The notes: generated by a model from the sequence alone, not told the origin. A DNA stretch of 64,000 nucleotides from Patescibacteria group bacterium (GCA_041650915.1 JBAZKE010000003.1:149226-213225); one strand, 5' to 3'; positions 24,032 to 41,035 are shown, counted from the first letter of the stretch. Made by a program: numbers and translations.

Positions 24032-24391
24032 ATGTCAAAAAAAATTTCCGCCGGTCTATTTGCCGTTATCGGCATGGCACTGCCAGCCGTTAGCTTGGCA
24101 CAAGCAGGCGCCGGCCAATACGGTTCTACTTTCGGGATAGGAACCGCGGATCTGGCTTCAACGGTTATCATGATCGTACAGTGGGTTTTGGGATTCTTAG
24201 GCCTGGTCGCTGTACTCATGATTATCTACGGTGGTTTTATTTTACTGACGGTGGGTGGCGGCAATGAGGAGCGGGCGGCATCATCAAAAAAAATAATCAC
24301 GGCGGCTGTCATAGGGTTGGCCGTTGTTCTACTGGCGTGGGCGATTGTCACGTTTGTGATCGGAACGACGGGTAACGTGGCGACCGGCTGA
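24032..24391 (+). CDS. TrbC/VirB2-like T4SS pilin family protein (signal peptide plus two hydrophobic helices)
   Basis: 119 aa. Signal peptide with AQA cleavage site. The mature part is paralogous to the truncated ORF at 1..239. Starts 30 nt after the ABC-2 permease stop. Confidence 0.5.
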   Translation: MSKKISAGLFAVIGMALPAVSLAQAGAGQYGSTFGIGTADLASTVIMIVQWVLGFLGLVAVLMIIYGGFILLTVGGGNEERAASSKKIITAAVIGLAVVLLAWAIVTFVIGTTGNVATG

Positions 24392-25268: not shown

Positions 25269-27146
25269 ATGAGTAAATCATTTCCTATGGATACCCACTC
25301 AGAGCTCACTCCGGAGCAAAAGAAGCAGTTAGCCAGGTCAAAGGCGATCCTGTGGATCGGGCTGACGGTCATCGTACTGCTCGGACTGGCTGTGGCCGTG
25401 TATTTTGTATTTTTGAAAAGTTCGGATGAAAATCTGAATACCAGTACGGACGAATCAACTCTCAATAGTAACGCTGAGGCAAGTCAGAACATTAATGTTT
25501 CTGGATTGAATAACGTCGATATCAGTACGGAGTACGCCGTCGTTACCGAGGAGCCGGATTTGGTGACATGGGAGCCGATCCAGTGTACGGGTGATCTGCT
25601 ACGTGTTGATCTACAAGTACCGATGGCATGGTCAACGTTTGTCTTCGTCGAGGGATCGAGCAGTTTATCGGGGCGGCTGCTTTTTTCAAATTCCAGTACA
25701 CTTGGATTCAACCTCAATAGGATGACCGTTCCGGCAGGGACGCCGTTCCAAGAGTACCTGGAGGAGTATAGCAGAAGCGCTGCCGGCTTTTCATCGGCCA
25801 GCGGAGAAAAAAAGGACATCGTATTCGGGGCGATCGGAGATCGTAAGATCGCAGTGCTCGATATTCTCTCTGACGAAGGGACGTACCTGACCCGCAACGT
25901 TTTTTTCAGCGTTGAACCGTACATCATTAGAATTGAAACCCACGGCCCGCTCGATGAGTATCGGCAGGCTGCAGCCACGTTTGCACGGATTATCGGCAGT
26001 GTGGAGATTAGCGGCATATCGGTCGATACGGGTATACGGTGGCTATCCCAAAAGGACGATCAGTTTGGGTATTCAGTGCACTATCCGAGCACGTGGAAGC
26101 ATTCGAATAAGACAACAATTTTGCCGAATACCTGGGAGAGTCTTGTGTTCGGGATATACAAAACGTATACGAACAGTAACGGGGATGCTGATTCGGGTTC
26201 TTTTGAGATTCGATACTCCATGGAGCCGTTTGACGGTTTACTTGAAGAGTGGGTTCGTGCACATGATTATCGTTTCGATAATGATGCGATCACAGTTCGT
26301 ACGTTCGAGTCGACTGAATTGACTGGCCATAATGCACTGTACCTCGAAGCGACCAGCAATGTTGCTGGTGGTTATATAAATTCGTACTTTCTGGACGTTC
26401 AAGGGTATGTGATGCATATTGGCATCAATTCGCGGATACTTTCTATCGACAAAGAAAACCAGCAGGACTTTGACGATACGGTTGAGCGGATGATGAGCTC
26501 CTTTACTTTTTCGGAAGAACCGACGTTCTTGCTCAGCGATACGTATGAGTACGAAGAGTCTATCACAAATTCGGCAACCGGCGCGTCGTACGCGATCCGT
26601 CGCCCAAAGATGTGGGAACACTGTGGTAAGTCTGGTTGCGCACTTGTAGAAGTTGCCGATAATACTACATATAATGTCGTCGCCTATCTTTTTATAAAAG
26701 AGGGGGGCTTCTACCCATCCGCTTCGATTGCCGGTTTTTTGGATGCTGATACGATCGTATTGCATTATCGGTCATGGGATCACGGTGGTGGATACGATCG
26801 CCTTTTTTCACTCAATCTGAAAACCTACACACAGACGGAACTTCTATTTTATGATTCACGGGAAGATTCTTCGAGTGGGAAGTACATGTCAAACTCGATT
26901 TATTTTAAAAAGGATGGCAAGGAGCTGGCATTTGTGAATAACGTTGTGCCATACACAGCTGAGTATACGGAGACCGGCGTATGGGTGAATGCGGGTGACG
27001 GTTGGGAGCAGCTATCTTTTGCGGAAGAGCCAACGTTCAATATTGATTTCAAGCCACTCGAGAATTACCGGAACGGCAATCTGTTGTCATTGACTATCAA
27101 TAGTCGCCAGTACACGTTTGATTTTGATACGATGGCGTTTCAGTAG
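25269..27146 (+). CDS. hypothetical membrane-anchored extracytoplasmic protein with PsbP/Mog1-like motif (tentative)
   Basis: 625 aa, N-terminal TM helix; internal motif RWLSQKDDQFGYSVHYPSTWK is related to 27160..28209 and 4857..5459. Confidence 0.45.
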   Translation: MSKSFPMDTHSELTPEQKKQLARSKAILWIGLTVIVLLGLAVAVYFVFLKSSDENLNTSTDESTLNSNAEASQNINVSGLNNVDISTEYAVVTEEPDLVTWEPIQCTGDLLRVDLQVPMAWSTFVFVEGSSSLSGRLLFSNSSTLGFNLNRMTVPAGTPFQEYLEEYSRSAAGFSSASGEKKDIVFGAIGDRKIAVLDILSDEGTYLTRNVFFSVEPYIIRIETHGPLDEYRQAAATFARIIGSVEISGISVDTGIRWLSQKDDQFGYSVHYPSTWKHSNKTTILPNTWESLVFGIYKTYTNSNGDADSGSFEIRYSMEPFDGLLEEWVRAHDYRFDNDAITVRTFESTELTGHNALYLEATSNVAGGYINSYFLDVQGYVMHIGINSRILSIDKENQQDFDDTVERMMSSFTFSEEPTFLLSDTYEYEESITNSATGASYAIRRPKMWEHCGKSGCALVEVADNTTYNVVAYLFIKEGGFYPSASIAGFLDADTIVLHYRSWDHGGGYDRLFSLNLKTYTQTELLFYDSREDSSSGKYMSNSIYFKKDGKELAFVNNVVPYTAEYTETGVWVNAGDGWEQLSFAEEPTFNIDFKPLENYRNGNLLSLTINSRQYTFDFDTMAFQ

Positions 27147-27159
27147 GGAATCGAAAAGT

Positions 27160-28209
27160 ATGAAATACCCCAAGGGCCTCACCCACATCGTTCTCATCAT
27201 AACAATCGCCCTGATTGCCGGGCTAATGGTCGGCGCTGCGTGGTATTTTGAGCAGAACAAGGGAGAGGAAACGTCGGTCGTGAATGTTAATACTGCCAGT
27301 GCAAACACAAACGTGAATACGAATAGTACTATGGATGAGGAGCAGCAAACGTATTCGTATGCAACGGCGTACCACGCGTTCTCATTTGATCTGCCAAAAA
27401 GCTGGACGGTAAGCGAATCGAACGTGCACGCTGAAGAGCGCCAAGGGCTGGTTATCGCATCTGACTCCGAAAGCGATCCTGGAGCTGCATACTTGACCGT
27501 CAGTTTTTATAATAATCCACGTTCGCTGGACGAATGGGTGGCAGAGCATACAGAGGAGTTAATTCGTAGCCACGAGGATATTATCGCAGGCGAGTCGGAT
27601 TATACGGATGCCCGGCGCCACGTGGTGGTGGGGGAGATGAAGGGGCTATTTAAGCACGCGCACTGCTACGTGCAGGGCGATGGTGTTGTATATGAAGCTT
27701 ACTTTTTCAGCGAGCTTGAGAATTGGGAGCGGTATAAAGAGATTTTTAACCGGGCGTGCTCGACTTTCCAGGTTTCATCAGAACTCATTGATACCTCAGA
27801 CTGGCTAACGTATGAGAATGAGGAGTATGGGTATTCATTTTCATATCCTGGGGATTGGAGTTTGGATGAGGTTGAAGATACTGAAACGCGGATTTCTTGC
27901 CCCATAGGAGCATGCAGTTGGTCGCTTATGGTCATAAAAACGGATCAATCAGTCGAAGATTTCATTGCCAGCTATGGCAGTAATGAATCTGAAGACATGA
28001 GGCAATTCAACCAAATTCTTTCACAAGAAGATATTATTATCAATGGTCGAACTGGAGTCAGACTGGAAGGATCGACCACGCTCGGAATCCATGATGCCTA
28101 CATCTTTTTTCCTACTATGGATGGGAGCATTCGATTGCAGTATCATTTGGTTAATTCAATCGATGATATTGGGCCGGTGATTGTAAATACTTTTAACATT
28201 TTGGAATAG
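27160..28209 (+). CDS. hypothetical membrane-anchored extracytoplasmic protein, paralog-like to the preceding gene
   Basis: Start placed at MKYPKG (27160) just after the upstream stop. N-terminal TM helix, Asn/Thr-rich linker (NTNVNTNS) and motif DWLTYENEEYGYSFSYPGDWSLD. Confidence 0.45.
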   Translation: MKYPKGLTHIVLIITIALIAGLMVGAAWYFEQNKGEETSVVNVNTASANTNVNTNSTMDEEQQTYSYATAYHAFSFDLPKSWTVSESNVHAEERQGLVIASDSESDPGAAYLTVSFYNNPRSLDEWVAEHTEELIRSHEDIIAGESDYTDARRHVVVGEMKGLFKHAHCYVQGDGVVYEAYFFSELENWERYKEIFNRACSTFQVSSELIDTSDWLTYENEEYGYSFSYPGDWSLDEVEDTETRISCPIGACSWSLMVIKTDQSVEDFIASYGSNESEDMRQFNQILSQEDIIINGRTGVRLEGSTTLGIHDAYIFFPTMDGSIRLQYHLVNSIDDIGPVIVNTFNILE

Positions 28210-28235
28210 GGGAAAACTTTAAAAAAGCACGAAAA

Positions 28236-28262
28236 TTAGCACTCTTGACTGTAGAGTGCTAA
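28236..28262 (+). promoter_or_regulatory. CIRCE operator (HrcA binding site), perfect inverted repeat
   Basis: TTAGCACTC-TTGACTGTA-GAGTGCTAA: 9-bp arms and a 9-bp spacer, 27 nt upstream of the hrcA start. Confidence 0.85.
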
Positions 28263-28288
28263 TTGCGTTATACTACCTGTGCAAACAT

Positions 28289-28993
28289 ATGAAAGACCGA
28301 AAAAGCGCTTTACTTAGCGCAATAATCAAGGAACATATTTCCACGGGAAGCGCGGTGGCATCCAAAAAACTTGTGGATAACCATACTTTTTCAGTATCTC
28401 CTGCTACGATCCGCAATGACATGGCTGCCCTGGAAAAAGAAGGCTATATCCACCAGCCGCACACGTCAGCTGGAAGGATACCGACGGAAAAAGGCTGGAA
28501 GCACTACATTGAGAACTTTTTACGCGATATTGACCTGACTGAAGCTGAGAAAAAAGCCCTCGACAGCGTCATCCAGAAGGAGACGGGCCTTGCGCACGAT
28601 TCGGTAATCAAGCGGGTGGCAAAGCAGCTCGCGGAAATGTCGAAGGAGGCGGTATTTGTCGGGCTCAATTCGGATTCTTACTACTACACCGGCCTCTCGA
28701 ACCTGTTTGGACAGCCCGAATTCCAGGAGTTGGACCTTGTCCGGCACATTTCATCGGTTGTCGATACGCTCGATGAGGTAATCAAGAAAATGTTCGACGA
28801 TTTCAGGGACGGCACGACTGTCATGGTCGGCAGCGACAACCCGTTCGGCAATGAGTGCAGCTCGATCGTCGGCACGTATGAGAATAAAAGCGGGCAGCGG
28901 GGCGTATTCGGAATTCTTGGCCCTATGCGGATGGACTACGAGCAGAACCTCGCGCTTATCAAGCACGCACAGAAGCTTTTTATAAACATTTAA
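28289..28993 (+). CDS. hrcA: heat-inducible transcription repressor HrcA (compact form, 234 aa)
   Basis: N-terminal winged helix with IRNDMAALEKEGYIHQPHTSAGRIPT and C-terminal GVFGILGPMRMDYEQNLALI. Preceded by CIRCE and followed by grpE. Confidence 0.7.
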   Translation: MKDRKSALLSAIIKEHISTGSAVASKKLVDNHTFSVSPATIRNDMAALEKEGYIHQPHTSAGRIPTEKGWKHYIENFLRDIDLTEAEKKALDSVIQKETGLAHDSVIKRVAKQLAEMSKEAVFVGLNSDSYYYTGLSNLFGQPEFQELDLVRHISSVVDTLDEVIKKMFDDFRDGTTVMVGSDNPFGNECSSIVGTYENKSGQRGVFGILGPMRMDYEQNLALIKHAQKLFINI

Positions 28994-29005
28994 ACCCAAC
29001 TCGAC

Positions 29006-29518
29006 ATGCCTGATATTAAAAAGACCGTGCCGGCAGAGCGCGGAGGCGGGGAACAGAAAAAAGATACAGGAATGGCGCCGGAAATCATGCAGCGAAAAAT
29101 GGAAGAGTACCTCAACGGGTGGAAGCGGGCGAAAGCGGACTACATCAACTTCAAGCGCGAATCGGAAAAGAAGCAGCAGGAGACGGTGCAGTACGCAACT
29201 GCTGCGGTGATCCTCGAGCTCCTGCCCATCTACGACAACTTCAAGCTCGCCTGGAAGCACATACCAGAGGGCAAGCAGCAGGACGACTGGCTGAAGGGGA
29301 TCGGGCACATTAAGCAGCAGTTCAAGGAATTATTGAAGAGCCTCGGCATCGAGGAAATCAAGACAGTCGGCGAGCGCTTCAACCCCGAGCTGCACGACGC
29401 GGTCGCGAAGGAGAAAGCGGACGGCACGGAGAGTGGAACGGTTATCGAAGAGCTCAAGGGCGGATACAAGCTGTACGACAGGGTGCTCGAGCATGCAAAG
29501 GTGAAGGTAGCGGAATAA
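29006..29518 (+). CDS. grpE: nucleotide exchange factor GrpE
   Basis: 170 aa. Pattern WKRAKADYINFKRESEKKQQETVQYATAAVILELLPIYDNF plus a C-terminal beta-domain. Confidence 0.85.
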   Translation: MPDIKKTVPAERGGGEQKKDTGMAPEIMQRKMEEYLNGWKRAKADYINFKRESEKKQQETVQYATAAVILELLPIYDNFKLAWKHIPEGKQQDDWLKGIGHIKQQFKELLKSLGIEEIKTVGERFNPELHDAVAKEKADGTESGTVIEELKGGYKLYDRVLEHAKVKVAE

Positions 29519-29527
29519 ATCCACCTC

Positions 29528-29548
29528 ATTCTGAATTTGTTTCAGAAT
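29528..29548. promoter_or_regulatory. 21-bp palindrome ATTCTGAA-N5-TTCAGAAT between grpE and hsp20 (candidate operator)
   Basis: ATTCTGAATTTGTTTCAGAAT. A near-identical copy (one mismatch in the 5-nt centre) lies at 34128..34148. Confidence 0.4.
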
Positions 29549-29665
29549 CCCTGGCGCAATACTAGTGAGATCCCGAGATCGCCGCGCCCTCGCTCGGTTC
29601 GGGCTCGCGATGACAAGAATAACGAACGATTTACAAGTAATTAATCATTAAGAAAGGAACAGCAT

Positions 29666-30100
29666 ATGGCAATCGTACGGTGGAGACCTTCCTGGGACAT
29701 GTCGGAGTTCGACAAGTTCTTCGAGGACATGCCGAATATGCCGACGAGCATGCAGGCGTTTACGCCCGCAGTCGACATCTACCAGGATAAGAACAACGTG
29801 ATGGTAGAGACTCCGCTCGCCGGCGTTGACCCGGAGAAGGTGGATATCTCGATCGAGAATGACGTGCTCAAGATCGAAGGCAAGGCTGAGCACAAGACGG
29901 AGGTCGATGAGAAGAATTACTACCGCAAAGAGGTGCGGTCTGGCAGCTTTTACCGCGCCGTAGCCCTCCCCACGCACGTGAAGGGCGACCAGGCGAAGGC
30001 AACGTTCGAGAACGGCATGCTCAAGATAACCATTCCGAAAGCGGAAGAGGTCAAGCCGAAGACTATCAAGGTCTCGGTCAAGGGCAGCAAGAAGAAGTAG
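29666..30100 (+). CDS. Hsp20/alpha-crystallin small heat-shock protein
   Basis: 144 aa. Alpha-crystallin domain (AVDIYQDKNNVMVETPLAGVDPEKVDISIENDVLKIEGK...GMLKITIPK). Confidence 0.85.
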   Translation: MAIVRWRPSWDMSEFDKFFEDMPNMPTSMQAFTPAVDIYQDKNNVMVETPLAGVDPEKVDISIENDVLKIEGKAEHKTEVDEKNYYRKEVRSGSFYRAVALPTHVKGDQAKATFENGMLKITIPKAEEVKPKTIKVSVKGSKKK

Positions 30101-30214
30101 CATCGCAAGCACTCGGGTGGCAGCACGTATGCTGCCGGTCCGAGGCGAGCGTCCTGATGGACACTCCCGATCAGGCGTTCACCTCGGACAAGAGCATATA
30201 AAGAGCATACTCAT

Positions 30215-30574
30215 ATGAAGATTTCAAATAATGTGCCAGGCAGCAGCCGCGGCAAGCCAGGCAGGCCGGAACGCATCAAGATTGACGCCCGGTGCCCGGT
30301 ATGCGGCAGCATGTACGATTTTGGCCACCTCGAGGTGCTCCAGGAAGAAGACGGCGCTACCCTCATGTACATTAAGTGCACCGTATGCCTGTCTGCGGCG
30401 CTCTCGATTATCGCATTCGGTTCGTTCGGGCTCAAGGTGGCGACTGCGCTTACCGACCTTGAGCAGGAAGAGGTGCTCCGGTTCAAGGAGCAGCGGCCGA
30501 TCGGCAGTGAGGAAGTGCTCGAGCTGCATGAGATGCTCGGGAAGACTGATAATTTCTTGGACAGCATTTATTAA
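30215..30574 (+). CDS. hypothetical zinc-ribbon protein
   Basis: 119 aa. CPVCGS...CTVC Cys4 arrangement; lies between hsp20 and dnaK. Confidence 0.35.
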
Positions 30575-30609
30575 ACAAGCCATTAAATACATTATGAAAG
30601 GATAAAAAA

Positions 30610-32529
30610 ATGGGAAAGATACTAGGCATTGACCTCGGCACGACCAACTCCGCGATGGCAGTCATCGAGGGCGGCGAGCCGAAGGTTCTCGAAAACAAGG
30701 AGGGAAACCGCACGACCCCGTCGATGGTCGCGATAACCAAGAACGGCGAGCGTGTCGTGGGGCAGATCGCCAAGCGGCAGGCCGTCACCAACCCGGAGAA
30801 CACGATTTTTTCGGTCAAGCGGCTGATCGGCAGGAAGTGGTCGGACGAAGAGGTGCAGCGTGACGTAAAGACCATGCCGTACAAGATCGTACAGGCGGGA
30901 GAGGGCATCAAGGTCAAGCTCAACGGCCAGGAGCAGACGCCGCAGGAAATTTCCGCGGCGATCCTCCAGAAGCTGAAGGCTGACGCCGAAGCGAAGCTCG
31001 GAGAAAAGGTAGAAGGCGCGGTCATCACCGTACCGGCGTATTTCGACGACGCACAGCGCCAGGCGACCAAAGACGCGGGCGAGATCGCAGGTTTGGAAGT
31101 GAAGCGCATCATCAACGAGCCGACCGCGGCAGCGCTTGCGTACGGCTTCGAGAAAAAGAAGAACCAGCAGATTGCGGTATACGACCTTGGCGGTGGCACG
31201 TTCGACATTTCAATTCTTGACGTTTCGGCGGATACGGTGGAGGTGAAGTCGACCAACGGCGACACCCATCTCGGCGGCGATGATTTTGACAAGCGCATTA
31301 TTGACTGGCTCATCGACGAGTTCCGCAAGGACCAGGGCATGGATCTTGGCAACGACCAGATGGCGCTGCAGCGGCTTAAAGAAGGCGCGGAGAAGGCCAA
31401 GGTGGAGCTCTCCACGTCGGCGGAGACGGAGATTAACATACCGTTCGTCACGTCGGACGCATCGGGCCCCAAGCACCTCAACGTGAAGCTCACCCGGGCA
31501 AAGCTCGAGGACCTCGTCGGCGACTTGATTGAGAAAACCATCGAGCCGGTGCAGAAAGCGCTCGACGACGCGAAGCTGAAGACGAGCGAAATCGAAGAGG
31601 TCATCATGGTTGGCGGCATGACCCGCATGCCCAAGGTGCTCGAAACTGTTGAAAAGTTTTTCGGCAAAAAACCGCACATCGGCGTGAATCCGGATGAGGT
31701 TGTGGCGATGGGCGCTGCGGTCCAGGCCGGGGTGTTGCAGGGCGACGTGAAAGACGTATTGCTCCTGGACGTGACGCCCCTGACCCTCGGTATCGAGACG
31801 CTCGGCGGCGTATCGACTCCGCTCATCGAGCGCAATACGACCGTCCCGACTTCCAAATCGCAGATATTTTCGACCGCGGCGGACAACCAGACGTCAGTCG
31901 AGATTCACGTGCTGCAAGGCGAGCGCCCGATGGCAGCGGACAACAAGACGCTCGGGAAATTCATGCTGACCGGCATTCCGCCGGCGCCGCGCGGCGTTCC
32001 GCAGGTTGAAGTTTCGTTCGACATCGACGCGAACGGCATTCTCAACGTGAAGGCGACGGACAAGGCAACCGGCAAGGTGCAGTCCATCACCATCACCGGC
32101 TCGTCCGGCCTTAGTAAGGACGAGGTGGAACGGATGAAGCAGGACGCGCAAAAGCACGCGACGGATGACCAGAAGAAGAAGGAGGTTGTTGATACGCGCA
32201 ATATCGCCGAGACCACCATGTTCACCGCCGAGAAGGCGCTGAAAGACGCCGGCGACAAGGTAAAGGCGGATGTTAAAAAGGAGATCGAAGATAAGATCAA
32301 GGCAGTGAAGGACGTGAAGGACAAGGATGACATCAGCGCGATCAAAAAGGCGACCGAAGAATTATCGGCCGCCATGCAGAAGATCGGGCAGGCAATGTAC
32401 GGCCAGCAGCAGGCGGGCGCACAGCCAGGCGGTTCACAGGGCAAAGCGGATGAGAAAGCCAAGGATCCGAAGGACAAAGGCCCGGTAGATGCAGAATATG
32501 AAGACGTCAAGAAAGGGGAGAAGAAGTAA
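30610..32529 (+). CDS. dnaK: chaperone DnaK (Hsp70)
   Basis: [21 protein letters not shown] and the substrate-binding/lid domains; 639 aa. Confidence 0.95.
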
Positions 32530-32675
32530 CATCCGGCAATGGAGCTAACATTAACAGTTCAATGTAGATAATATGCAAAGGGCGAGCCGTCATTTAGGGG
32601 GCTCGCCCGTCCGCTATCGGCTTTGCTTTCAAGCGAAGCCGGGCGGGCTGTTTGGATGAGCGATAGAACAGAAGT

Positions 32676-33920
32676 ATGTCAATTTTGGATAAAAATTTAT
32701 CAGAAATAACCTTTAAAAATATTGAGGAATTTTGTGCTGAAGGGATACCTGAAGGTATTCAGCTTGATTATAAATTAACTCGCCCAGAAAAAGGTTTTTC
32801 CAAACACTTTGCAGGGTTAAGTAATCAAAAGGGAGGTTTAATAATTCTTGGTATTGACGAAGATCGTAATACAGGCATTCCAAAGGCATGGGTTGGTATA
32901 AAAAAGGATGGCAAATTACTCGAGCAGATTCATCACGACGCTGCCAATGTTGATCCATTTCCTGAATATGATATACATTATACCGATGAAGTTGATGGTC
33001 ATGTTTTTTTATTAATTAGAATTTTTGAAGGTAGCCAAACTCCTTATTATGTATTTAATGATTCGAACCTTTGGGTTAGAACGGGAAATATTAGAAAGCC
33101 GATTGATCTTGCTAACCCGAAACAGGCCGAGATTCTATTCAATAAAAGAGAGAAGGCGATAGCTCAAAGAAATATACTTCTTAGACAGGCAGATTATTCA
33201 TTTGATAATGGTTTACATCGTGCTGAGCTTGAAAGACTTACAAAAATTTCTGAAAAACAAGATGGCCAAGCGAGTATTGTATATGGAAATACCTTAGGTG
33301 AAAAATCGTCGATTTGTAAAGTATATCTTTTACCATATTACCCAAATATTAACTTTGCGACACCTCAGGATTTATTAGTTTTTAGCAACGAGCTTAATGA
33401 ACGACCAAGCCGCGAATTTGAGACTATCCCCTATGGTATTTTTCAATTTATCTGGAGCCAATATAATGGGTACGTTGAATGTTGTCAGTTATTTTCAAAA
33501 GGATTGATTTATTATTATTCCGACGTTTTAACGGGAGATTATGACACAGGAGGAAAGATAGAATTACGCTTTGTCGCCGGAGCAGTGCATCGGGTTATTA
33601 ACCTTTCTAAAAAATACTTTCAAAAATATTTGTTTACTGGATCATTAATTGGAGGTATCACTTTATCAGACGTCAGGGCTTTGAAGTTATTTCCTATTAA
33701 AACTCGAGGCATCGCTTTTGATCCTGGCGAATTGAAAACATGTTTGTTACCGGATTATCATTTAGAAATGAATCTTACTTCACAAGTATTATTTAGTCAG
33801 GAATTGCTAAATAAATGGTATTTTAAACAAATAAAAGAGATTTATATTAGTTTAGGCTTGAGAGCACCAAGTGATTTACTATTAGAAAGTTTCTGTAAAG
33901 AAAATGATTTCACTTTTTAG
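32676..33920 (+). CDS. AlbA_2 / Schlafen-like (divergent AAA_4) domain protein; AT-rich, likely horizontally acquired
   Basis: 414 aa. N-terminal pattern LSEITFKNIEEFCAEGIPEGIQLDYK...FAGLSNQKGGLIILGIDEDRNTGI...HVFLLIRIFEGSQTPYY matches the AlbA_2 putative DNA-binding domain. Codon usage is conspicuously AT-rich versus the rest of the window. Confidence 0.55.
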   Translation: MSILDKNLSEITFKNIEEFCAEGIPEGIQLDYKLTRPEKGFSKHFAGLSNQKGGLIILGIDEDRNTGIPKAWVGIKKDGKLLEQIHHDAANVDPFPEYDIHYTDEVDGHVFLLIRIFEGSQTPYYVFNDSNLWVRTGNIRKPIDLANPKQAEILFNKREKAIAQRNILLRQADYSFDNGLHRAELERLTKISEKQDGQASIVYGNTLGEKSSICKVYLLPYYPNINFATPQDLLVFSNELNERPSREFETIPYGIFQFIWSQYNGYVECCQLFSKGLIYYYSDVLTGDYDTGGKIELRFVAGAVHRVINLSKKYFQKYLFTGSLIGGITLSDVRALKLFPIKTRGIAFDPGELKTCLLPDYHLEMNLTSQVLFSQELLNKWYFKQIKEIYISLGLRAPSDLLLESFCKENDFTF

Positions 33921-33998
33921 TTTTCGTCACATTAGTAAGACAGAAATAAATTGACAGTCCGCGGGGGTGTGGGAATGAAGAGACAATAATTATTATGT

Positions 33999-34119
33999 AC
34001 CTCACCCTGAATTCGTTTCAGGGTCCCAATGTACAAGGTGCTAGCATGAGAGATGCCGAAATGAATTCGGCATGAGGGCATGTCAAAAGACCTCACCCTG
34101 AATTCGTTTCAGGGTCCCA
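33999..34119. repeat. two perfect 30-bp direct repeats (33999..34028 and 34090..34119), each with an internal hairpin CCCTGAA-TTCGT-TTCAGGG
   Basis: ACCTCACCCTGAATTCGTTTCAGGGTCCCA occurs twice, 91 bp apart. The 61-bp spacer holds another hairpin (GCCGAA-ATGAA-TTCGGC) flanked by CATGAG direct repeats. Confidence 0.7.
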
Positions 34120-34127
34120 TTGAGGAG

Positions 34128-34148
34128 ATTCTGAAACAAGTTCAGAAT
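34128..34148. promoter_or_regulatory. second copy of the 21-bp palindrome ATTCTGAA-N5-TTCAGAAT
   Basis: ATTCTGAAACAAGTTCAGAAT is the reverse complement of the 29528 copy with one central mismatch; sits 9 bp after the second 30-bp direct repeat. Confidence 0.4.
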
Positions 34149-34483
34149 GAGAAGTGAGGATGAGGGAGGAGCTCCGTCAGTCAACGGAGCGACCGCATTC
34201 ATCGGGCGGAGCGCAACCACGACGGATTGCACTCGGAGGAAAATTCATTAACAAGCAAATAAAAAGAGAAGTCGCCCGACGTACGTGGCTAGTACGTTGT
34301 CGTGGCAACCTCGATGTCCCTTGGCAAAATACCTCACCATGAAAGTGTTACCTTTCCATTTCACTCGCCATTACTCATCGGGATAGGTAAGCGACAGCTT
34401 CATTTTATAGTATACGGTAGCAGAGCGTGCGATTTGTTTTCTTGGTTTAATCCTAATCCCCAAGCGTTAATCAGTCAACACCA

Positions 34484-35149
34484 ATGGTATTTCCCGTACT
34501 GCGAGTAGCCTTTTTCCCCGTACTGCGGTTTTTCACGAAGCGGGCCGTCAATATCGAGAACCTTCCCAAAGAAGGGCCGTACCTGATCGTGTGCAAGCAC
34601 GTCGGGGCGCTCGACGGGTTTTTTCTCGCCGCCGTTGCAGTGCCGTACCTGGACAAGAAGATCCGCTTTATCGCCAAGGTGAACGAGTGGGGGTATGTCT
34701 GGAAAACGATGATTTCCAGCAACTGGGCGCGGGTGATAGAGTTTTTGCCCGAAGACCGGTCGCGGTGCCTCATTGACGCGAGCGATGCGCTCACCGCCGG
34801 CGACATCGTGGCGCTGTACCCCGAGGGGTACCTCGATGAGCTCGACCATAGCAGCAGGCCGAAAACGGGAGCCGCCCGCTTGGCAATCTGGAAACGTGTG
34901 CCTATCGTGCCGGTCGGGCTGCAGTACGACATCACGGTCAGGAGCCATCGCAAGGTACTGAACCAGTTCTGGCGGTCGGTGTGGAACGCGCTCAAAAATC
35001 CGCACTCCATGGTAATCACGTTCGGCAAGCCGTTCGAGCTTACCGAGTACTACGGCAAGGAAATGAATGAAGACGTATTGCGCAGCGCGACCGAGAAAAT
35101 CATGGGCGAAATAGAAGCACTCACGCACGTTAATAACATAAATAAATAG
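34484..35149 (+). CDS. lysophospholipid (1-acyl-sn-glycerol-3-phosphate) acyltransferase-like, PlsC/LPLAT family
   Basis: 221 aa. HX4D catalytic motif (CKHVGALDG) and a PEG box (ALYPEGYLD). The exact start is uncertain; the N-terminus has the tandem peptide repeat FPVLRVAFFPVLRFF. Confidence 0.55.
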   Translation: MVFPVLRVAFFPVLRFFTKRAVNIENLPKEGPYLIVCKHVGALDGFFLAAVAVPYLDKKIRFIAKVNEWGYVWKTMISSNWARVIEFLPEDRSRCLIDASDALTAGDIVALYPEGYLDELDHSSRPKTGAARLAIWKRVPIVPVGLQYDITVRSHRKVLNQFWRSVWNALKNPHSMVITFGKPFELTEYYGKEMNEDVLRSATEKIMGEIEALTHVNNINK

Positions 35150-35198
35150 ACCTCACGCCTGGGGAAGGGGTGAGGTCCGGAAAGCGGCAACTCGACGG

Positions 35199-35663
35199 TT
35201 ACCAGCTCGATTCGATTTTAAACGTTTCAGAAAAGCACATCCCCGCCATGCCAGCGTAACACAGGAAAGCGGGAAAGATACGCAGCAGGACGGCAGTAGG
35301 GGGATCGAAGCTGGTCGGTTGCAGGTTGAGGGTCAGCAGCATGGCCAGCCCGAACGCAGCGCACCCGAAATAGAATTCGAGCTCGCGCCATTCGTTAACG
35401 CTTTGCAGCGGCGCCGCTTCCCTGAGCTCATCAATTTTGGAAGAGCGAGCCACGAGCGTCAGAAAAATCAGAAACAGCGCATCAATCATGGTCAGGATAT
35501 TGACCAGCGTGCCGAGGAACCCTCCGTACAGCGTCCTGAGCGAGCTCGCAATGGCGAGCATAAAGCTGATCACCAGGACAACTCGGAGCGCGATAATGCA
35601 GAGTACGACGAATCCGCTCGCTATCCCTTCGTCGTGCTCCTCGTCAACGTACAGGGTACTCAT
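35199..35663 (-). CDS. hypothetical polytopic membrane protein
   Basis: 154 aa with 4 hydrophobic helices. Confidence 0.4.
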   Translation of the reverse strand: MSTLYVDEEHDEGIASGFVVLCIIALRVVLVISFMLAIASSLRTLYGGFLGTLVNILTMIDALFLIFLTLVARSSKIDELREAAPLQSVNEWRELEFYFGCAAFGLAMLLTLNLQPTSFDPPTAVLLRIFPAFLCYAGMAGMCFSETFKIESSW

Positions 35664-36305
35664 TTTGTACTCCCTCCTTTTTGGGCGATAAGGTTATTAA
35701 ATGGCTATTTTCAGGTTACGCTACCACGGGCTGAGGCTCATGTCAATATAAAATTCGGCTCACTCTCGTGGGAAGAGTGAGCCTTTCATGGAGGGTATGC
35801 GATGACAGACGTCAGCGGATACCAAGGGCAAATAACGATGAATAATTTCGGACTCGCCTAGGAAAAGGATTGGCAGGAAGCCTAGGCACAAATGTACAGC
35901 GAAAAAAGTGGATTCCCTTTGTATATTAACTCGTAGGGCACTGGCAGTATAATGCGGTTTCAAGCAGGTGTCAATATAAAAAATCGGTCCGTCTCAGCTG
36001 TAGCGGAGACGGACCTTCGTTCTGGAATAATGTGGTAAATGTGGAAAAACCGAATAGAACGGTTTCTCCTGAACAATTTTTACGTCCAGGATAGGACGCT
36101 GGTCGCGCCTGAGTAAGCTTGCAGAAAGCGTTAGGCGCTGGCAGGTAAGGTGCTATGCATTGGCGTGTACATTCTCGAGGTACGCCGAGAGATACGGTAG
36201 AGCATAGAGTATTGCCGGAACATTGTCAAATAAAAAAGCCCGCGGCGTGGGGTGCACACCGCGAGCGTCTGTGGAGGAACCAGGGAGCGCACGCTCCCGC
36301 GTATC

Positions 36306-36803
36306 CTAGGTTTTCTGCCTGTTGAGCATTGATCCGTTGCGGACGTCGGTCATAAGCTTGACCGGGCCGACGATGTGAATGATGCCGCTGGCATCGTACC
36401 ACACCTCGCGCGTGCCGCCGATCGAGAGCTGTACTTCGCAGTCGATCATGTCGAGCGTGAATCTGAACGTCGGTCTGATGCTGTCCCCTTGTTCCGGGAA
36501 GACGACGATGAGGCCGCCTCCTTCGGCCGCGATCGTATCGTACGTGAACCGCTGGTTGACGAACGCCCACTTGAGCACCGTCTGTACTCTGGCCTCCGCC
36601 AGAGATACTATGTAGCGTTCCCCCTCCTGGAGGATCCACCTATCTTCCTTTTCGGACGCGGTAATGATTGCGCGTCCGTCGATGATCGCTGCTCTCGGTA
36701 TTTCGTACAGCGTGTTATTAACGTCGAGGATTGAGAGCGTATCGCCCTCGATTTCGAGCAGCCGGATCTTAATCCCCGTTTGGCCTGATCGTGCCATCTG
36801 CAA
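36306..36803 (-). CDS. hypothetical protein
   Basis: 165 aa, no recognisable motifs. Followed on the - strand by a GC-rich hairpin plus T-run (about 36225-36260 in + coordinates). Confidence 0.4.
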   Translation of the reverse strand: MQMARSGQTGIKIRLLEIEGDTLSILDVNNTLYEIPRAAIIDGRAIITASEKEDRWILQEGERYIVSLAEARVQTVLKWAFVNQRFTYDTIAAEGGGLIVVFPEQGDSIRPTFRFTLDMIDCEVQLSIGGTREVWYDASGIIHIVGPVKLMTDVRNGSMLNRQKT

Positions 36804-37102
36804 CCTCCTGTTCTAGCGGACATTTTGTCCCGTTTTTTATGTCAACTGTACTATGTATTCCCAATTAGTTCACCTTATGGCTCAATGAAGGATATGTCAA
36901 GAGTCCAGAGCCTCCGACTTTCTGTAGCCAGATAGCGGCAAAGAGTTTTGGGATTTTTCAATGAGCGGGGCGCTAACGTGCCAATTGCATGCCATGCCGC
37001 CGAAGAAATCCTCCAAACCCCACCGTTGAAAGATGCCGATGCTTCTAACAATTTTAATTGAAAAGTGATAGTATATAAGTAATAAATGAAAGGATTCATT
37101 TT

Positions 37103-37414
37103 ATGAACGGACAGCAACCGCCGCAAGGCCAGCAGCAGCTCAACATCAAGATCGACGATGCGACGCTCAAGGGCGTGTACACGAATGCGATGGGCGTGTC
37201 TCACTCCAAGGAGGAGTTCGTGCTCGACTTCATGAATCTGTACCCGTGGCAACGGGCAGGGGTAGTCAGCGCGCGGGTCATCACGAGCCCCGGGCACGTG
37301 AAGCGCATCTTCAAGGCGCTCGAGGAGAACATTAAAAAGTACGAAGGCAAGTTCGGGAAGATCGAGGTCGCGAAAGCCCCCTCAGCCGAAGATATCGGGT
37401 TCAAGACCGCGTAA
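37103..37414 (+). CDS. DUF3467-family small protein
   Basis: 103 aa. Pattern QLNIKIDDATLKGVYTNAMGVSHSKEEFVLDFMNLYP...ARVITSPGHVKRIFKALEENIKKYEGKFGKI matches my recollection of DUF3467 proteins. Confidence 0.5.
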   Translation: MNGQQPPQGQQQLNIKIDDATLKGVYTNAMGVSHSKEEFVLDFMNLYPWQRAGVVSARVITSPGHVKRIFKALEENIKKYEGKFGKIEVAKAPSAEDIGFKTA

Positions 37415-37471
37415 AAAACGAGCCTCCCGAGGAAGAGGGGAGGCTCACAACCGAGGTCGATGTGATGATTA

Positions 37472-37834
37472 TCAGTACTGGCGGAAGTGGTTCCTGAATT
37501 CTTTTTCACCGATGGAAACGGCGGTGCCGTCTTCGGTAAATACCCGGTAACCCGTACCTTTATCGCCAGCGACGTAGTACATTCCTTTTTGCCGAAAGTG
37601 GGCAGCACCCCTTGTCAAATCTCGCGTACACTCGTACGGCACGACGACCAGAAAGTGCTCGTCGAATTGACTAACGGGGACAGATTCCACTCCTCCGCCT
37701 GCTTTATCGATACTGATGATGCCACGGCACTGCCCAAAACGGATTTGATACGCCTTGCCTTCGATAAAGACCGGATTTCCATCGGCCGGGAAGGATTTCA
37801 TACATCGAACGTTGCAAGGAACTGTTATGTTCAT
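37472..37834 (-). CDS. hypothetical protein
   Basis: 120 aa open frame on the - strand; no motif recognised. Confidence 0.3.
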   Translation of the reverse strand: MNITVPCNVRCMKSFPADGNPVFIEGKAYQIRFGQCRGIISIDKAGGGVESVPVSQFDEHFLVVVPYECTRDLTRGAAHFRQKGMYYVAGDKGTGYRVFTEDGTAVSIGEKEFRNHFRQY

Positions 37835-37927
37835 TTAACCTCCAAATGTTTGTCATCTCATTTCAGCAATAGGTTAGTGTAATGGTAACGAGCAGTGCTG
37901 TCAAGCTTTGCGTTCACATAATACTAT

Positions 37928-38989
37928 ATGAGAGTAGAGCAAAAAGAAGAGCCCTCCCTATCGGCGGGTAAACAAAAAAAGCCGGAAAAATTCGTACCAG
38001 CGCAGCCCATCGGCAAGGTAGCCACGCTCATGGCGCTCGCCGTCGTTGCGACGGCGCTGTTTTGGCTCGCGTGGCACAACGCGCTCTCGACCGGCATCAG
38101 CCTGTCGGGCAGCACGGATAACGTAATCGTCGTCGCCTCGACGCTGCTCGCATTCTGCCTCATGTTTTGCATGCTCGCTGCCGCTGAAATGCTGATCACG
38201 CGGAAGCTGCTTCTCTTTATCATGGCGTTCGCTGCGGCGGGCACGATGTTTGTATTCTTTGCCGTCACGCAGTGGTCGATCGTGGGTTTCCTGCTCATGA
38301 GCCTGGGCTTCCTGTACTGGCGGCATGAGATTCACGCCGACGCTGAGACGAGGACCAAATTCGTGCCCCACCGGACTGTCGGTTCGAGCCTCAAGACGGC
38401 GGTTGCCCTCGTGCTCCTCGCGGGATCGTTCGTGTACTACAGCTCGCTCTCAACGGGCGGTGATGCGGCCGAGAAGGTGACTGAAAGCCTCGTGAATACC
38501 GGCACGTCGGTCGTTGAGAGCGTCCTCCGGCGGACGTACGGAGAGCAATACGATCCGATGATGGAGCTCGACGCGTTCATCATGGGAGTCGGCGTCGAAG
38601 GGGTGGAGAAGCTGATTCCGGCCGAGACAGGCTACGAACAGATCGATGCGGTCATCGAAGAAGGCATTGAGACGGCGAAAACGGAGGCCGTCATCGAGAT
38701 CCGCACTGAGCTGCTCGATACGTTCGGCATTGCAGCCGAGGGCGATGATTCCATGCGTTCCGTCGTCTCGAAGGTTGTCCTGAAGAACATTGAACAGTAT
38801 ACTGAACCGTATATCAAGTTCGTTCCAGCCCTTATGGCGATTGGCTTGTTTCTGGTGCTCAATATATTCAGTTTCATATACCGTGAACTCATAAAATCGT
38901 TCGCATACCTCGTATTCAACATACTCGTGTGGATTAAATTCATCAGGATCGAGAAGGCCCACGTTGAGGTTGAGAAGGTAACGCTCTAG
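37928..38989 (+). CDS. hypothetical polytopic membrane protein
   Basis: 353 aa. Four N-terminal helices, an acidic central soluble region and a C-terminal helix. Confidence 0.45.
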   Translation: MRVEQKEEPSLSAGKQKKPEKFVPAQPIGKVATLMALAVVATALFWLAWHNALSTGISLSGSTDNVIVVASTLLAFCLMFCMLAAAEMLITRKLLLFIMAFAAAGTMFVFFAVTQWSIVGFLLMSLGFLYWRHEIHADAETRTKFVPHRTVGSSLKTAVALVLLAGSFVYYSSLSTGGDAAEKVTESLVNTGTSVVESVLRRTYGEQYDPMMELDAFIMGVGVEGVEKLIPAETGYEQIDAVIEEGIETAKTEAVIEIRTELLDTFGIAAEGDDSMRSVVSKVVLKNIEQYTEPYIKFVPALMAIGLFLVLNIFSFIYRELIKSFAYLVFNILVWIKFIRIEKAHVEVEKVTL

Positions 38990-38998
38990 GCAAACCAT

Positions 38999-40105
38999 AT
39001 GGCGAAAGACTACTACGAACTGCTCGGTGTTTCGAAAAACGCGACGCAGGATGAAATCAAGAGGGCATACCGCAAGCTCGCCCACCAGCATCACCCTGAT
39101 AAGAAGGGCGGCGATGAGGCAAAGTTCAAGGAGATCAACGCGGCGTACCAAGCGCTCGGCAATCCCGAGAAGCGCAAGCAGTACGACCAGTTCGGCGCAG
39201 CGTACGGCCAGCCGGGCGCGGGCGGGCCGGGAGGCGGTCCCGGAGGTTTCTCATGGGAGGATTTTGCCCGGGCATCGGGTGGCGGGCAGTACCAGCAGGG
39301 CGGGGTGGATTTTGATTTCGGCGATATTTTCGGCGACCTATTCGGATTTGGCAGGCGCGGCGGCGGAGCCGGGGGGCGGACCCGCCGCGGCGGCAACGAC
39401 ATCCAAGCAGAAATGACGATTGATTTTAGGGAGTCGGCGTTCGGCGCGGACAAGGTCATTGACCTGTACAAGAGCGTGGTGTGTTCTCGCTGCTCGGGGG
39501 GCGGTGCAGAGCCCGGCACCAAGGTGGAGACCTGCACGACGTGCGGCGGCAGCGGCAGGGTTGAGCAAATACAGCGAACGATTCTCGGCGCGTTCCGCAC
39601 GGTCGGCGTGTGCCCCGAGTGCCGGGGCGAGGGCAAGCGGGTGGGCACGAAGTGCAGGGAGTGCCGGGGCAGCGGCCGCGTGAAGAGCAGCGAAACGATC
39701 AAGGTAAAGGTGCCTGCAGGCATTTCCGATGGGGAGACGATCCGCCTTTCGGGAAAGGGCGAGGCAGGCGAGCGGGGATCAGGCGCAGGAGATCTGTACA
39801 TAACCATGCGCGTGAAACCGGATCCGAATTTTGAGCGGAAAGAGGATGATATTGTTTCCTCCGTTGATATCACCTTTCCCCAGGCGGCGCTCGGCGATAA
39901 AATTCCCATCCTGACGCTTGACGGGGAGGTTTCACTAAGGATTCCTGCCGGGACCCAGTCTGGCAAGGTTTTTAAGCTCAGGGACAGAGGCGTCATGCAC
40001 CTGCGTTCGCGGGGCAGGGGCGACCATCTCGTCACCGTTAACGTCGTTACGCCGACGGATCTTTCACGCAAGCAAAAAAAGCTGCTCGAAGAGTTCGGGG
40101 AGTAA
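38999..40105 (+). CDS. dnaJ: chaperone DnaJ
   Basis: J-domain with HPD (YRKLAHQHHPDKKGG), Gly/Phe-rich linker, four CxxCxGxG zinc-finger repeats and a C-terminal domain; 368 aa. Confidence 0.9.
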   Translation: MAKDYYELLGVSKNATQDEIKRAYRKLAHQHHPDKKGGDEAKFKEINAAYQALGNPEKRKQYDQFGAAYGQPGAGGPGGGPGGFSWEDFARASGGGQYQQGGVDFDFGDIFGDLFGFGRRGGGAGGRTRRGGNDIQAEMTIDFRESAFGADKVIDLYKSVVCSRCSGGGAEPGTKVETCTTCGGSGRVEQIQRTILGAFRTVGVCPECRGEGKRVGTKCRECRGSGRVKSSETIKVKVPAGISDGETIRLSGKGEAGERGSGAGDLYITMRVKPDPNFERKEDDIVSSVDITFPQAALGDKIPILTLDGEVSLRIPAGTQSGKVFKLRDRGVMHLRSRGRGDHLVTVNVVTPTDLSRKQKKLLEEFGE

Positions 40106-40120
40106 CCCATTCGAAAACAA

Positions 40121-40166
40121 AACCGCGGGTACCGTAGCAACCGCGGTGGTTGTTTTTGTTTTTTTG
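40121..40166. terminator. bidirectional Rho-independent terminator between dnaJ (+) and the HD-domain gene (-)
   Basis: ACCGCGG-GTACCGTAGCA-ACCGCGGT hairpin flanked by A-run upstream and TTGTTTTTGTTTTTTT downstream. Confidence 0.6.
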
Positions 40167-40176
40167 CTGCCGCAAT

Positions 40177-40908
40177 TTACGCAGCGAGCAGCTGCCGTGC
40201 GTTCTCGAATGCTGTTTCGAGAAACCTGCCAGGCTTCATGCCCGCGTGGGCACTGACAGCCCGGAGCATGCTGTTCGCCGCCCGCTTCAGTACGGTGAGC
40301 GTGGGGCTCGACAGCCGGTAGTGGCGCTGCCCCTCCGTATCCAGGCCAGGATAACGCTCACGGAGGTACACGATGCGTCCGCCGATATCCGTGAATTCGC
40401 TATTGTTCACCAGGCAGTCGGCGAGGAATACGATGACCGCGTACAGGGGCAGCGAACCGGACGCCCGCTCGTACAGCCGGAGCGTATCGAGCGAAGCGCA
40501 TAGCGCTGCCCTGACGGTACGTTTGTCCCATCCGCAGCCGCTGAGCAGCTTCTCCTGGCGGTCGGTCTGGCTATCGATCCACCCAAAGTCATGGCCGCCG
40601 TTTGCGTCCGCGTGCTCGATGAGCATGCGCTTCCAGAAATCATGGACCGCGCACGCGCAGATGCATTCGGTTTTGTAGCTGTACGTGATGAGCCGCGTCA
40701 TCGCGTATGCGAGAGCCGCCGTGGCAACCATGTGGTTTACGATGTGCAACCAGCCGGTTTCCAGGAGCTGCCCGTGATTCCAGGTCTGTTCAATGCGCCG
40801 CAGCTGCCGGTCCGGCAGAATGCCCGAAAACGGCCGAAGTTCTTGTCTCACTCCACCCTCCTTGTTTATTTTGGCTGGACGTTTGTTTTTTAAAGCGCGC
40901 TGCAGCAA
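40177..40908 (-). CDS. HD-domain phosphohydrolase-like protein
   Basis: HIVNH...AVHDFWK arrangement (H..H then HD-aromatic-K) typical of the HD superfamily. Start uncertain; the annotated 243 aa may include an N-terminal extension. Confidence 0.45.
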   Translation of the reverse strand: MLQRALKNKRPAKINKEGGVRQELRPFSGILPDRQLRRIEQTWNHGQLLETGWLHIVNHMVATAALAYAMTRLITYSYKTECICACAVHDFWKRMLIEHADANGGHDFGWIDSQTDRQEKLLSGCGWDKRTVRAALCASLDTLRLYERASGSLPLYAVIVFLADCLVNNSEFTDIGGRIVYLRERYPGLDTEGQRHYRLSSPTLTVLKRAANSMLRAVSAHAGMKPGRFLETAFENARQLLAA

Positions 40909-41035
40909 TCTCCGCCGCAGCGTGCACTATCGTACCATAGCCGTTACATTTGTCAATTGATTGTGTGCAGTATTGACAGGGGAGCGTTTTTGGTGTACGG
41001 TACTATGAAGCAAAAACGAAGAAAAAAACCGTATC

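Follow-up and report, generated by a model that had tools for sequence, protein, structure and literature searches.

A predicted prokaryotic Schlafen gene of foreign composition in the gap between dnaK and dnaJ of a Patescibacteria genome

Introduction

What separates dnaK from dnaJ in the heat-shock locus of a Patescibacteria genome, and what kind of gene opens the gap? The question arises from a stretch of 64,000 nucleotides of a Patescibacteria group bacterium (GCA_041650915.1 JBAZKE010000003.1:149226-213225; hereafter the window, with positions counted from its first letter). Its heat-shock genes follow the order CIRCE-hrcA-grpE-hsp20-Zn-ribbon-dnaK, where CIRCE is the controlling inverted repeat of chaperone expression, and dnaJ lies 6.47 kb beyond dnaK. 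The first open reading frame (ORF) in the gap is AT-rich and encodes a 414-aa protein with a Schlafen-type domain. A sequence-only reading of the window took the entire interval (32530-38998) for one horizontally acquired, possibly defence-related cargo island inserted into the chaperone operon. The explanation that we favour, and that we hold to be fairly probable, is a composite gap in which an old native block is preceded by a recently acquired prokaryotic Schlafen (pSlfn), a probable anti-phage tRNase.

The phage-triggered tRNase activity of prokaryotic Schlafens was demonstrated in 2026 (Perez Taboada et al., Nat Microbiol 2026, PMC13056530). Each characterised one is a single-gene system: once a phage protein is recognised by the partner domain, the Schlafen domain cleaves tRNA anticodon arms with Mn2+/Mg2+ (PMC13056530). 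The motif Ex4(E/D)xK is catalytic for SLFN11 and for pSlfns, and it is the combination of the family PF04326 and this motif that defines a pSlfn (PMC13056530). The protein RorSlfn5 forms a hexamer, is triggered by the T5 tail assembly chaperone, cleaves tRNA anticodon arms upon trigger binding, and is dead as an E15A/D20A mutant (PMC13056530). In addition, pSlfns with Ig-like or DUF262 partners confer phage defence, and 69.6% of pSlfns have defence genes within +-10 kb (PMC13056530). An Enterococcus Schlafen whose C-terminus holds no known domain likewise gives abortive-infection phage defence (PMC13552941).

Results

The gene that opens the gap, and the two parts of its product to which we refer throughout, are the following.

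32676..33920, + strand: pSlfn gene, 414 aa, AT-rich, with a PF04326 match; first ORF in the dnaK-dnaJ gap
32751..32774, + strand: predicted catalytic motif Ex4(E/D)xK, as E26-GIQL-D31-Y-K33 (from the translation)
33258..33917, + strand: C-terminal domain (residues 195-414), putative sensor; AlphaFold (AF2) model of this part alone, predicted local distance difference test (pLDDT) 87

The composition of this gene sets it apart from its surroundings. Its GC content is 0.336 and its GC content at third codon positions (GC3) is 0.243, against 0.534 (standard deviation 0.043) and 0.635 (standard deviation 0.092), respectively, for 60 non-overlapping ORFs of the window. With z values of about -4.6 for GC and about -4.3 for GC3 it is the sole outlier among the window ORFs, and the claim that this ORF is far more AT-rich than the other genes of the window is therefore borne out. 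In 200-nt windows, GC values of 0.30-0.39 are confined to approximately 32600-33950, and the remainder of the gap lies between 0.44 and 0.63. A chimeric assembly is unlikely, because a second, independent assembly (Logan, SRR8542065, L082; a contig of 14.7 kb) is 100% identical to the 273-kb contig of ENA over 12.3 kb, including the dnaK/Schlafen/PlsC junctions. Most members of the protein family reside in genomes of 30-45% GC, and in hosts of higher GC the gene has a lower GC content than its flanks; the deficit of the window copy, about -0.20, is the largest. This pattern is consistent with a recent import from a low-GC lineage, still un-ameliorated.

The N-terminal part of the 414-aa protein matches PF04326 (SLFN_AlbA_2) over residues 29-143 with E=2.9e-11 and 44.4 bits, above the gathering cutoff of 25.3, and covers positions 4-117 of the 118 of the profile. 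The assignment of an AlbA_2/Schlafen-like N-terminus thus holds, and the same family is matched in 71/71 homologues compared. Among these, the first glutamate of the motif is kept in 67/71, the D/E position in 69/71 and the lysine in 67/71 (94-97%), and a downstream block, N50-x2-G53-G54-x4-G59-V-x-E62-D63, is almost invariant. An AF2 model built from 19 sequences (pLDDT 89.4, predicted TM-score 0.83) consists of an N-terminal alpha/beta domain (~1-145), a helix of ~47 residues (148-194) and a C-terminal alpha/beta domain (~210-414). When the model was compared by Foldseek with the PDB, the top matches were the N-domain of SLFN13 (5yd0, E=1.8e-5), SLFN14 (9nyy), the SAMD9 tRNase (9o0d), a RecG-related AlbA_2 protein (2kyy) and SLFN11; those to SLFN13, SLFN14, the SAMD9 tRNase and 2kyy had E=1.8e-5 to 7e-4 and probability 1.0. 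A profile search of PDB sequences returned SLFN14, SLFN12 and the CRISPR-associated Schlafen CbCash, all of them weak. Nothing was found for this protein in NCBIfam and PHROGs beyond a marginal AlbA_2-level "DNA helicase" PHROG (E=0.008), and PADLOC-DB v2 (2023), which predates the pSlfn papers, gave no families for it at E<=0.1. Judged by domain and motif, the 414-aa protein is a pSlfn with an intact catalytic motif.

Beyond the nuclease domain there are ~270 residues, including a confidently folded C-domain of ~205 aa that is conserved across the family. These ~270 residues have no Pfam match in any of the 71 members, and the C-domain has no significant fold match, as the sequence-only reading had anticipated in describing the C-terminal ~280 aa as unassignable. 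The mean pairwise identity is 43% in the nuclease domain vs 23% in the C-domain. A conserved nuclease beside a fast-evolving C-domain would fit the pattern of an effector and its sensor, as reported likewise for pSlfn5, whose nuclease is more conserved than its partner domain (PMC13056530). The C-domain begins, in the model, with a beta-alpha-beta4-alpha unit, and its recurrent weak matches are to TATA-box-binding proteins (TBP; BFVD, E=3e-3) and to the TBP-like N-domains of RnlA, with TM-scores <=0.31, below significance. The domain is possibly TBP-like, as far as the model indicates.

The family to which the protein belongs is large. At least 321 representative clusters (at 50% identity), nearly all of 400-445 aa and full length, reached E<=1e-30 when the profile was searched exhaustively, and a word-indexed search found 21 relatives with 33-50% identity; the window ORF is intact and full length with respect to the family. 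The family is essentially absent from IMG/VR, from the INPHARED phages and from the PLSDB plasmids, where only remote matches limited to the N-domain were found. Seven homologue loci had been gene-called and carried public annotation (compared loci are denoted by L and a number), and in 5/7 of them restriction-modification, Gabija, NERD or toxin-antitoxin genes adjoin the Schlafen gene.

L083: MmeI-type restriction-modification, with PLD-SNF2, NERD and terminase genes
L084: type I system, with Bro-N, GIY-YIG and ParE/Phd
L086: Dcm and Vsr
L087: type III system, with a large helicase
L090: Gabija GajA/GajB directly upstream

A scan of metagenomes with the 19-sequence alignment gave 80 more loci, and in 46 non-redundant loci the two nearest ORFs on each side were scanned. 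Defence genes are scattered among these neighbours (HerA, MADS, Mrr, ResIII, a type II methyltransferase and GajB), DUF2188 is found in five loci and MgsA/RarA in four. A lexA gene (LexA_DNA_bind plus Peptidase_S24) is an immediate neighbour in 7/46 loci (L083, L084, L086, L098, L109, L112 and L128); it is always upstream, and divergent in 6/7. In some of these loci a DUF2188-like ORF of ~78 aa lies between lexA and the Schlafen homologue. No LexA box or Cheo box is common to the lexA-pSlfn spacers. The spacer of L098 contains a perfect palindrome, TCGAAACAGTTTCGA, and there is no motif common to all spacers; nothing similar to the palindrome was found upstream of the window gene, and the window holds no LexA homologue.

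The rest of the gap has a different history. After the Schlafen gene come genes of mixed orientation, namely a PlsC-like acyltransferase, membrane proteins, DUF3467 and hypotheticals, all present as the earlier reading had listed them.

34484..35149, + strand: PlsC-type lysophospholipid acyltransferase; Pfam Acyltransferase E=1.2e-14; GC3 0.761; 63% identical to the L093 orthologue, same position
35199..35663, - strand: 154-aa membrane protein (mem154); GC3 0.703; L093 orthologue 27% identical, same position and strand
36306..36803, - strand: 165-aa hypothetical protein (h165); GC3 0.753; L093 orthologue 43% identical
37103..37414, + strand: DUF3467 protein; Pfam E=1.4e-21; 92% identical in L093
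37472..37834, - strand: 120-aa hypothetical protein (h120); L093 orthologue 45% identical, same position and strand
37928..38989, + strand: 353-aa membrane protein (mem353); 69% identical in L093; ends 10 bp before dnaJ

We compared dnaK neighbourhoods of GTDB species representatives, matched with the window proteins, and in addition a close relative (L093) was found via the PlsC protein. Its DnaK is 89.5%, its DnaJ 80.5% and its DUF3467 protein 92% identical to those of the window, and its block PlsC, mem154(-), h165(-), DUF3467, h120(-), mem353, dnaJ has the same order and orientation. GC3, computed on the called frame for PlsC, mem154, h165 and mem353, is 0.70-0.76, which is native. Nucleotide homology between the window and L093 stops at 32516 and resumes at 34503, and between dnaK and PlsC the relative carries five unrelated small ORFs in place of the Schlafen gene. 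These orphan ORFs (L093 1309-3950) encode 225, 131, 91, 83 and 155 aa; the one of 225 aa has a GC content of 0.33 vs 0.43 and weak coiled-coil-type matches only, and such contents suggest that foreign DNA enters this site repeatedly.

The arrangement extends beyond this pair of genomes, with DUF3467 and the membrane gene next to dnaJ found again in at least 10 further Patescibacteria loci. DUF3467 lies between dnaK and dnaJ in L002, L003, L006, L026, L027, L037 and L093; in L005, L009, L010 and L019, loci in which no dnaJ was detected, its position is 3' of dnaK. A mem353 homologue is directly upstream of dnaJ in L002, L003, L008, L011 and L027. The resulting arrangements include dnaK…DUF3467…mem353-dnaJ (L002, L003 and L027), dnaK-DUF3467-dnaJ (L006) and dnaK-mem353-dnaJ (L008). 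In more distant Patescibacteria (L004, L013, L015, L033, L034 and L036) dnaK directly precedes dnaJ, and for this reason the two genes were probably adjacent in the deep ancestor. The gap after dnaK ranges from ~20 bp to 6.9 kb in the loci that include dnaJ, and in L010 it exceeds 7.9 kb, with no dnaJ before the end of the locus. The space after dnaK is occupied in other relatives by unrelated genes, including NUDIX, methyltransferase, hydrolases, a DUF559 endonuclease and dUTPase. From such miscellaneous genes across relatives, the region after dnaK is read as a variable stretch in an old split locus.

By synteny, then, 34484-38989 appears to be a long-standing, vertically transmitted gene order characteristic of this Patescibacteria clade, and 32530-34483 (~1.95 kb: one gene and a cluster of hairpin repeats), which alone is absent from L093, to be the sole lineage-specific part of the gap. 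The pSlfn gene would accordingly be a lone gene gained in the variable stretch 3' of dnaK. The proposal of a horizontally acquired, possibly defence-related insert stands for the Schlafen gene, with its foreign GC, its absence from L093 and a family often near defence genes, and fails for 34484-38989. The DUF3467 protein and the membrane protein of ~350 aa may both work with the chaperone system as partners particular to this lineage. DUF3467 is mentioned by a single paper in the literature searched; a marginal CARF match of this protein in PADLOC (E=0.017) was treated as chance.

The edges of the lineage-specific segment are marked by structured sequence, including elements that resemble repetitive extragenic palindromes (REP) and bacterial interspersed mosaic elements (BIME).

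32580..32648, + strand: two tandem GC-rich hairpins after dnaK, no T-run; fold z=-5.5; left edge of the lineage-specific segment
33999..34153, no strand assigned: cluster of four REP/BIME-like 29-nt hairpin elements in the order +,-,+,-; near the right edge of the segment
33999-34027 (+), 34050-34078 (-), 34090-34118 (+), 34125-34153 (-): the four 29-nt elements
29523..29551, + strand: solitary 29-nt REP-like element just past the grpE stop, ACCTCATTCTGAATTTGTTTCAGAATCCC
35750..36235, - strand: two candidate small RNA units in tandem, each running from promoter to terminator and free of ORFs; located between h165 and mem154

Between dnaK and the Schlafen gene the scan called no terminator, the tandem hairpins not being a canonical one, and a weak promoter-like site is found there. 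The hairpin cluster described earlier after the 414-aa ORF is indeed present. Its elements have the form nCCTCA–7-nt stem–TTYRT–7-nt stem–TCYC, with stems that differ by compensatory substitutions; two copies in the cluster, at 34000 and 34091, are exact over 29 nt (0 expected by chance), and the 64-kb window has five extragenic copies in all. The 563-bp spacer after the Schlafen gene folds with z=-4.3. A related hairpin, TCCTGAACTTGTTTCAGGA, lies at ~3890-3945 of L093, just upstream of PlsC, and the cluster has a host-like GC content; it probably belongs to the host spacer and not to the imported gene. Like the REP/BIME of proteobacteria, these are hairpins of ~29 nt with conserved flanks, extragenic, in alternating clusters and with compensatory stem changes; unlike them, they are unrelated in sequence, five copies were seen in 64 kb, and no RAYT transposase was identified. 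Hairpins of the type CTGAA…TTCAG, similar to the window repeats, are common in intergenic regions of the candidate phyla radiation (CPR) and of Bacteroidota.

The two candidate small RNA units have sigma70-like promoters (11/12 and 10/12), strong terminators and folds of z=-5.2 and -3.3. The promoter of each unit is fused to the T-run of the preceding terminator, as TTTTTTAT(A)TTGACA-17-TATGCT/TATACT, and is followed by ~190-220 nt of structured sequence. The same two-unit architecture is present in L093 (5190-5810, - strand), where unit A is partly conserved in sequence. The idea that the two units are duplicates of each other was rejected on comparison. Rfam (E<=1, 27000-41000) returned a chance group-II D5 match only, and none for the repeats or the candidate small RNAs.

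With respect to the heat-shock genes themselves, the order that had been described, with dnaJ ~6.5 kb after dnaK, was recovered in full.

28236..28262, + strand: CIRCE operator (HrcA binding site), perfect consensus TTAGCACTC-N9-GAGTGCTAA, 5' of hrcA
28421..28993, + strand: hrcA; Pfam HrcA E=3.7e-21; start taken from the public gene call (L081)
29006..29518, + strand: grpE; Pfam GrpE E=3.1e-40
29666..30100, + strand: hsp20 small heat-shock protein; Pfam HSP20 E=8.2e-21
30215..30574, + strand: 119-aa zinc-ribbon-like protein; CPVC-N24-CTVC (CxxC-N24-CxxC) in the translation
30610..32529, + strand: dnaK; Pfam HSP70 E=3e-259
38999..40105, + strand: dnaJ; Pfam DnaJ, DnaJ_CXXCXGXG and DnaJ_C

The CIRCE consensus has a single match in the 64-kb window, with 0 expected by chance, and a consensus scan of the window found no second CIRCE upstream of DUF3467, mem353 or dnaJ. 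As for the start of hrcA, a mechanical GTG ORF begins at 28256 and overlaps CIRCE, and the public call at 28421 gives 190 aa, which is short for HrcA. Homologues of the 119-aa zinc-ribbon-like protein occupy the same position in L001 and L010. Directly before CIRCE-hrcA there are a 625-aa protein without any Pfam match and a PsbP_2-like protein; about 8-10 kb 5' of the Schlafen gene there are a gene of the T4SS_pilin family (24032-24391; L081 1357-1716) and a pair of ABC-2 transporter genes. Among the GTDB representatives, metagenome-assembled genomes (MAGs) titled "uncultured Gammaproteobacteria" or "Bdellovibrionales" (L001, L002, L008, L009, L010, L014, L019, L023 and L024) carry a hrcA-grpE-hsp20-dnaK-DUF3467 locus of Patescibacteria type. 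The DnaK proteins of these genomes are 66-77% identical to that of the genome studied here, and the titles are probably wrong taxonomically.

Discussion

How would such a gene act? We regard it as fairly probable that the pSlfn is a trigger-activated tRNase defence gene, a reading adopted because the protein has the same layout as the characterised pSlfns, an intact motif and, as they do, a divergent C-domain. By this analogy, the C-terminal domain would serve as a sensor that restrains the nuclease, and binding of a phage-derived cue would release it; the nuclease, dependent on metal, would then cut the anticodon arms of tRNAs, and the cleavage would stop translation, so that the infection would be aborted or blunted. 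Gene structure, composition, synteny, fold, motif and family neighbourhoods come directly from the present analysis; that the protein cuts tRNA, senses a trigger and protects against phage we infer from the characterised proteins.

The comparison with known systems shows both the extent and the limits of this analogy. The window protein has the N-terminal PF04326 and the Ex4(E/D)xK motif in common with RorSlfn5 (Schlafen plus Ig-like sensor) and EcoSlfn7 (DUF262-Slfn) (PMC13056530), the catalytic pair E15/D20 of RorSlfn5 corresponding to E26/D31. Like the pSlfns of that study, it is a single polypeptide of ~400 aa with a conserved nuclease and a divergent C-terminal partner, and its relatives are often near defence genes. 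It differs from them in its C-domain, which is not Ig-like, DUF262, histidine kinase or helix-turn-helix (HTH) and has no Pfam or significant PDB match, and in the 47-residue helix that joins the domains, unlike in RorSlfn5 and EcoSlfn7. Unlike many pSlfns, the window copy is without defence neighbours. Its host is a Patescibacteria MAG, a group that is unmentioned in the main text of PMC13056530, whose survey covered RefSeq complete genomes. There is some similarity to the class of pSlfn-TBP-like fusions (1.5% of pSlfns, PMC13056530) in the beta-alpha-beta4-alpha unit and in the weak TBP/RnlA matches of the C-domain, all below significance.

The Schlafen defence protein of Enterococcus lactis (PLoS Biol 2026, PMC13552941) follows the same architectural logic, with an unannotated C-terminus, a likeness by description; its gene adjoins a small serine recombinase, and the window locus has no recombinase. 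With the eukaryotic SLFN11/13/14 and the SAMD9 tRNase, the window N-domain shares the acidic motif and the core "N-x-x-G-G…G-V-x-(D/E)", at a sequence identity of 12-15% to eukaryotic Schlafen/SAMD9. The eukaryotic SLFNs have a two-lobe core, a linker and a helicase, and the window protein has one AlbA_2 lobe and an unrelated C-domain.

It should be said that several observations weigh against a recently acquired defence gene at this locus. There is no insertion signature: the dnaK-dnaJ interval has no integrase or recombinase Pfam domains, no tRNA lies at the insertion (the nearest are at 16782 and 57751), and neither a target-site duplication nor a flanking direct repeat of >=10 nt was found around the AT-rich segment. 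No donor was identified, because the closest homologue is no more than ~50-58% identical. When the defence neighbourhood was checked with PADLOC (2023), no model matched among the seven gap proteins and ten flanking proteins, and since there is no match within +-10 kb the window locus is not a defence island. Elsewhere in the family, two of the seven gene-called loci (L088 and L089) have housekeeping surroundings only, and lexA is the commonest immediate neighbour among the 46 loci, which is readable as stress regulation. Finally, the C-domain alone has no significant fold match in the PDB or BFVD, and its sensor label comes from analogy.

How should the other explanations be weighed? That all 6.5 kb (32530-38998) arrived as one cargo or defence island and split a contiguous dnaK-dnaJ operon is very improbable. 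The mixed orientation of the gap genes, several of them orphans, and the contiguity of dnaK and dnaJ in six more distant Patescibacteria speak for it, but the block from PlsC to mem353 is syntenic in L093, DUF3467 or mem353 is in the gap of many members of the clade, and the four block genes for which GC3 was computed are native; no PADLOC match, integrase, tRNA or flanking repeat accompanies them. An artefact of assembly or binning, by which a low-GC fragment of another organism was joined in, would account for a GC content that jumps abruptly from 0.53 to 0.33 and back over one gene only. Such an artefact is scarcely credible given two assemblies that are identical across both junctions, junctions in unique sequence and not in repeats, and an ORF that is intact and full length. 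It is also improbable, if less decidedly so, that the AlbA_2 domain serves to bind nucleic acid in a regulator or DNA-associated protein and has no nuclease role, as the NCBI label "ATP-binding protein" and RecG-related annotations could imply. The structure of lowest root-mean-square deviation is in fact 2kyy, the N-domain of a "putative ATP-dependent DNA helicase RecG-related protein" (3.7 Å over 126 columns), and many bacterial AlbA_2 proteins have HTH or histidine-kinase-like ATPase domains (PMC13056530). Yet no HTH, ATPase or helicase domain is present in any of the 71 members, the folds of best E-value are active Schlafen and SAMD9 RNases, and the near-invariant Ex4DxK and N-x2-GG-x4-G-V-x-E-D block are what selection on catalysis would give.

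The main rival explanation, unlikely in our view while still carrying some weight, makes the Schlafen protein a tRNase or RNase toxin of a stress regulon, under SOS control (lexA) elsewhere and here expressed by heat-shock read-through from the CIRCE/HrcA-controlled dnaK, which would arrest growth after damage, with any anti-phage effect secondary. The divergent lexA genes, the MgsA/RarA neighbours, the near absence of the family from phage and plasmid collections, and the position of the window gene behind dnaK, after hairpins without a T-run and with no terminator called, are all in its favour. However, 85% of the loci have no lexA neighbour, HSP70 is not among the top neighbour families of the other loci, the spacers share no LexA box, and the weak promoter-like site between dnaK and the gene also tells against it; a fast-evolving C-domain is more to be expected of a sensor in an arms race than of a housekeeping protein of the stress response. 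The related proposal that the Schlafen subfamily is wired into cellular stress regulons, instead of or beside direct phage sensing, is drawn from the gene being divergent beside lexA in ~15% of loci, a position typical of SOS genes, and here lying immediately 3' of dnaK, within the CIRCE/HrcA heat-shock unit, without a canonical terminator, and we consider it quite unlikely. If true, it would describe a stress-induced tRNase that halts protein synthesis once DNA damage or proteotoxic stress betrays a phage takeover or the induction of a prophage; in these ultra-small symbiotic bacteria a Schlafen effector would then be triggered indirectly, at the level of a regulon. The composite gap, with an old native block and a recently acquired pSlfn, remains the explanation that we prefer.

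Conclusions

The split of dnaK and dnaJ would be ancestral to the whole clade, a short stretch after dnaK being variable, which corrects the reading of a 6.5-kb defence island. A pSlfn with an intact active-site motif is now placed in Patescibacteria (CPR). What this adds is modest, namely a member of an uncharacterised pSlfn subfamily in a phylum for which the literature searched contains no paper that also mentions Schlafens. The recurrent adjacency of lexA offers a regulatory lead. For the Schlafens more widely, the work defines that subfamily, whose C-domain is a candidate new sensor of phage or stress.

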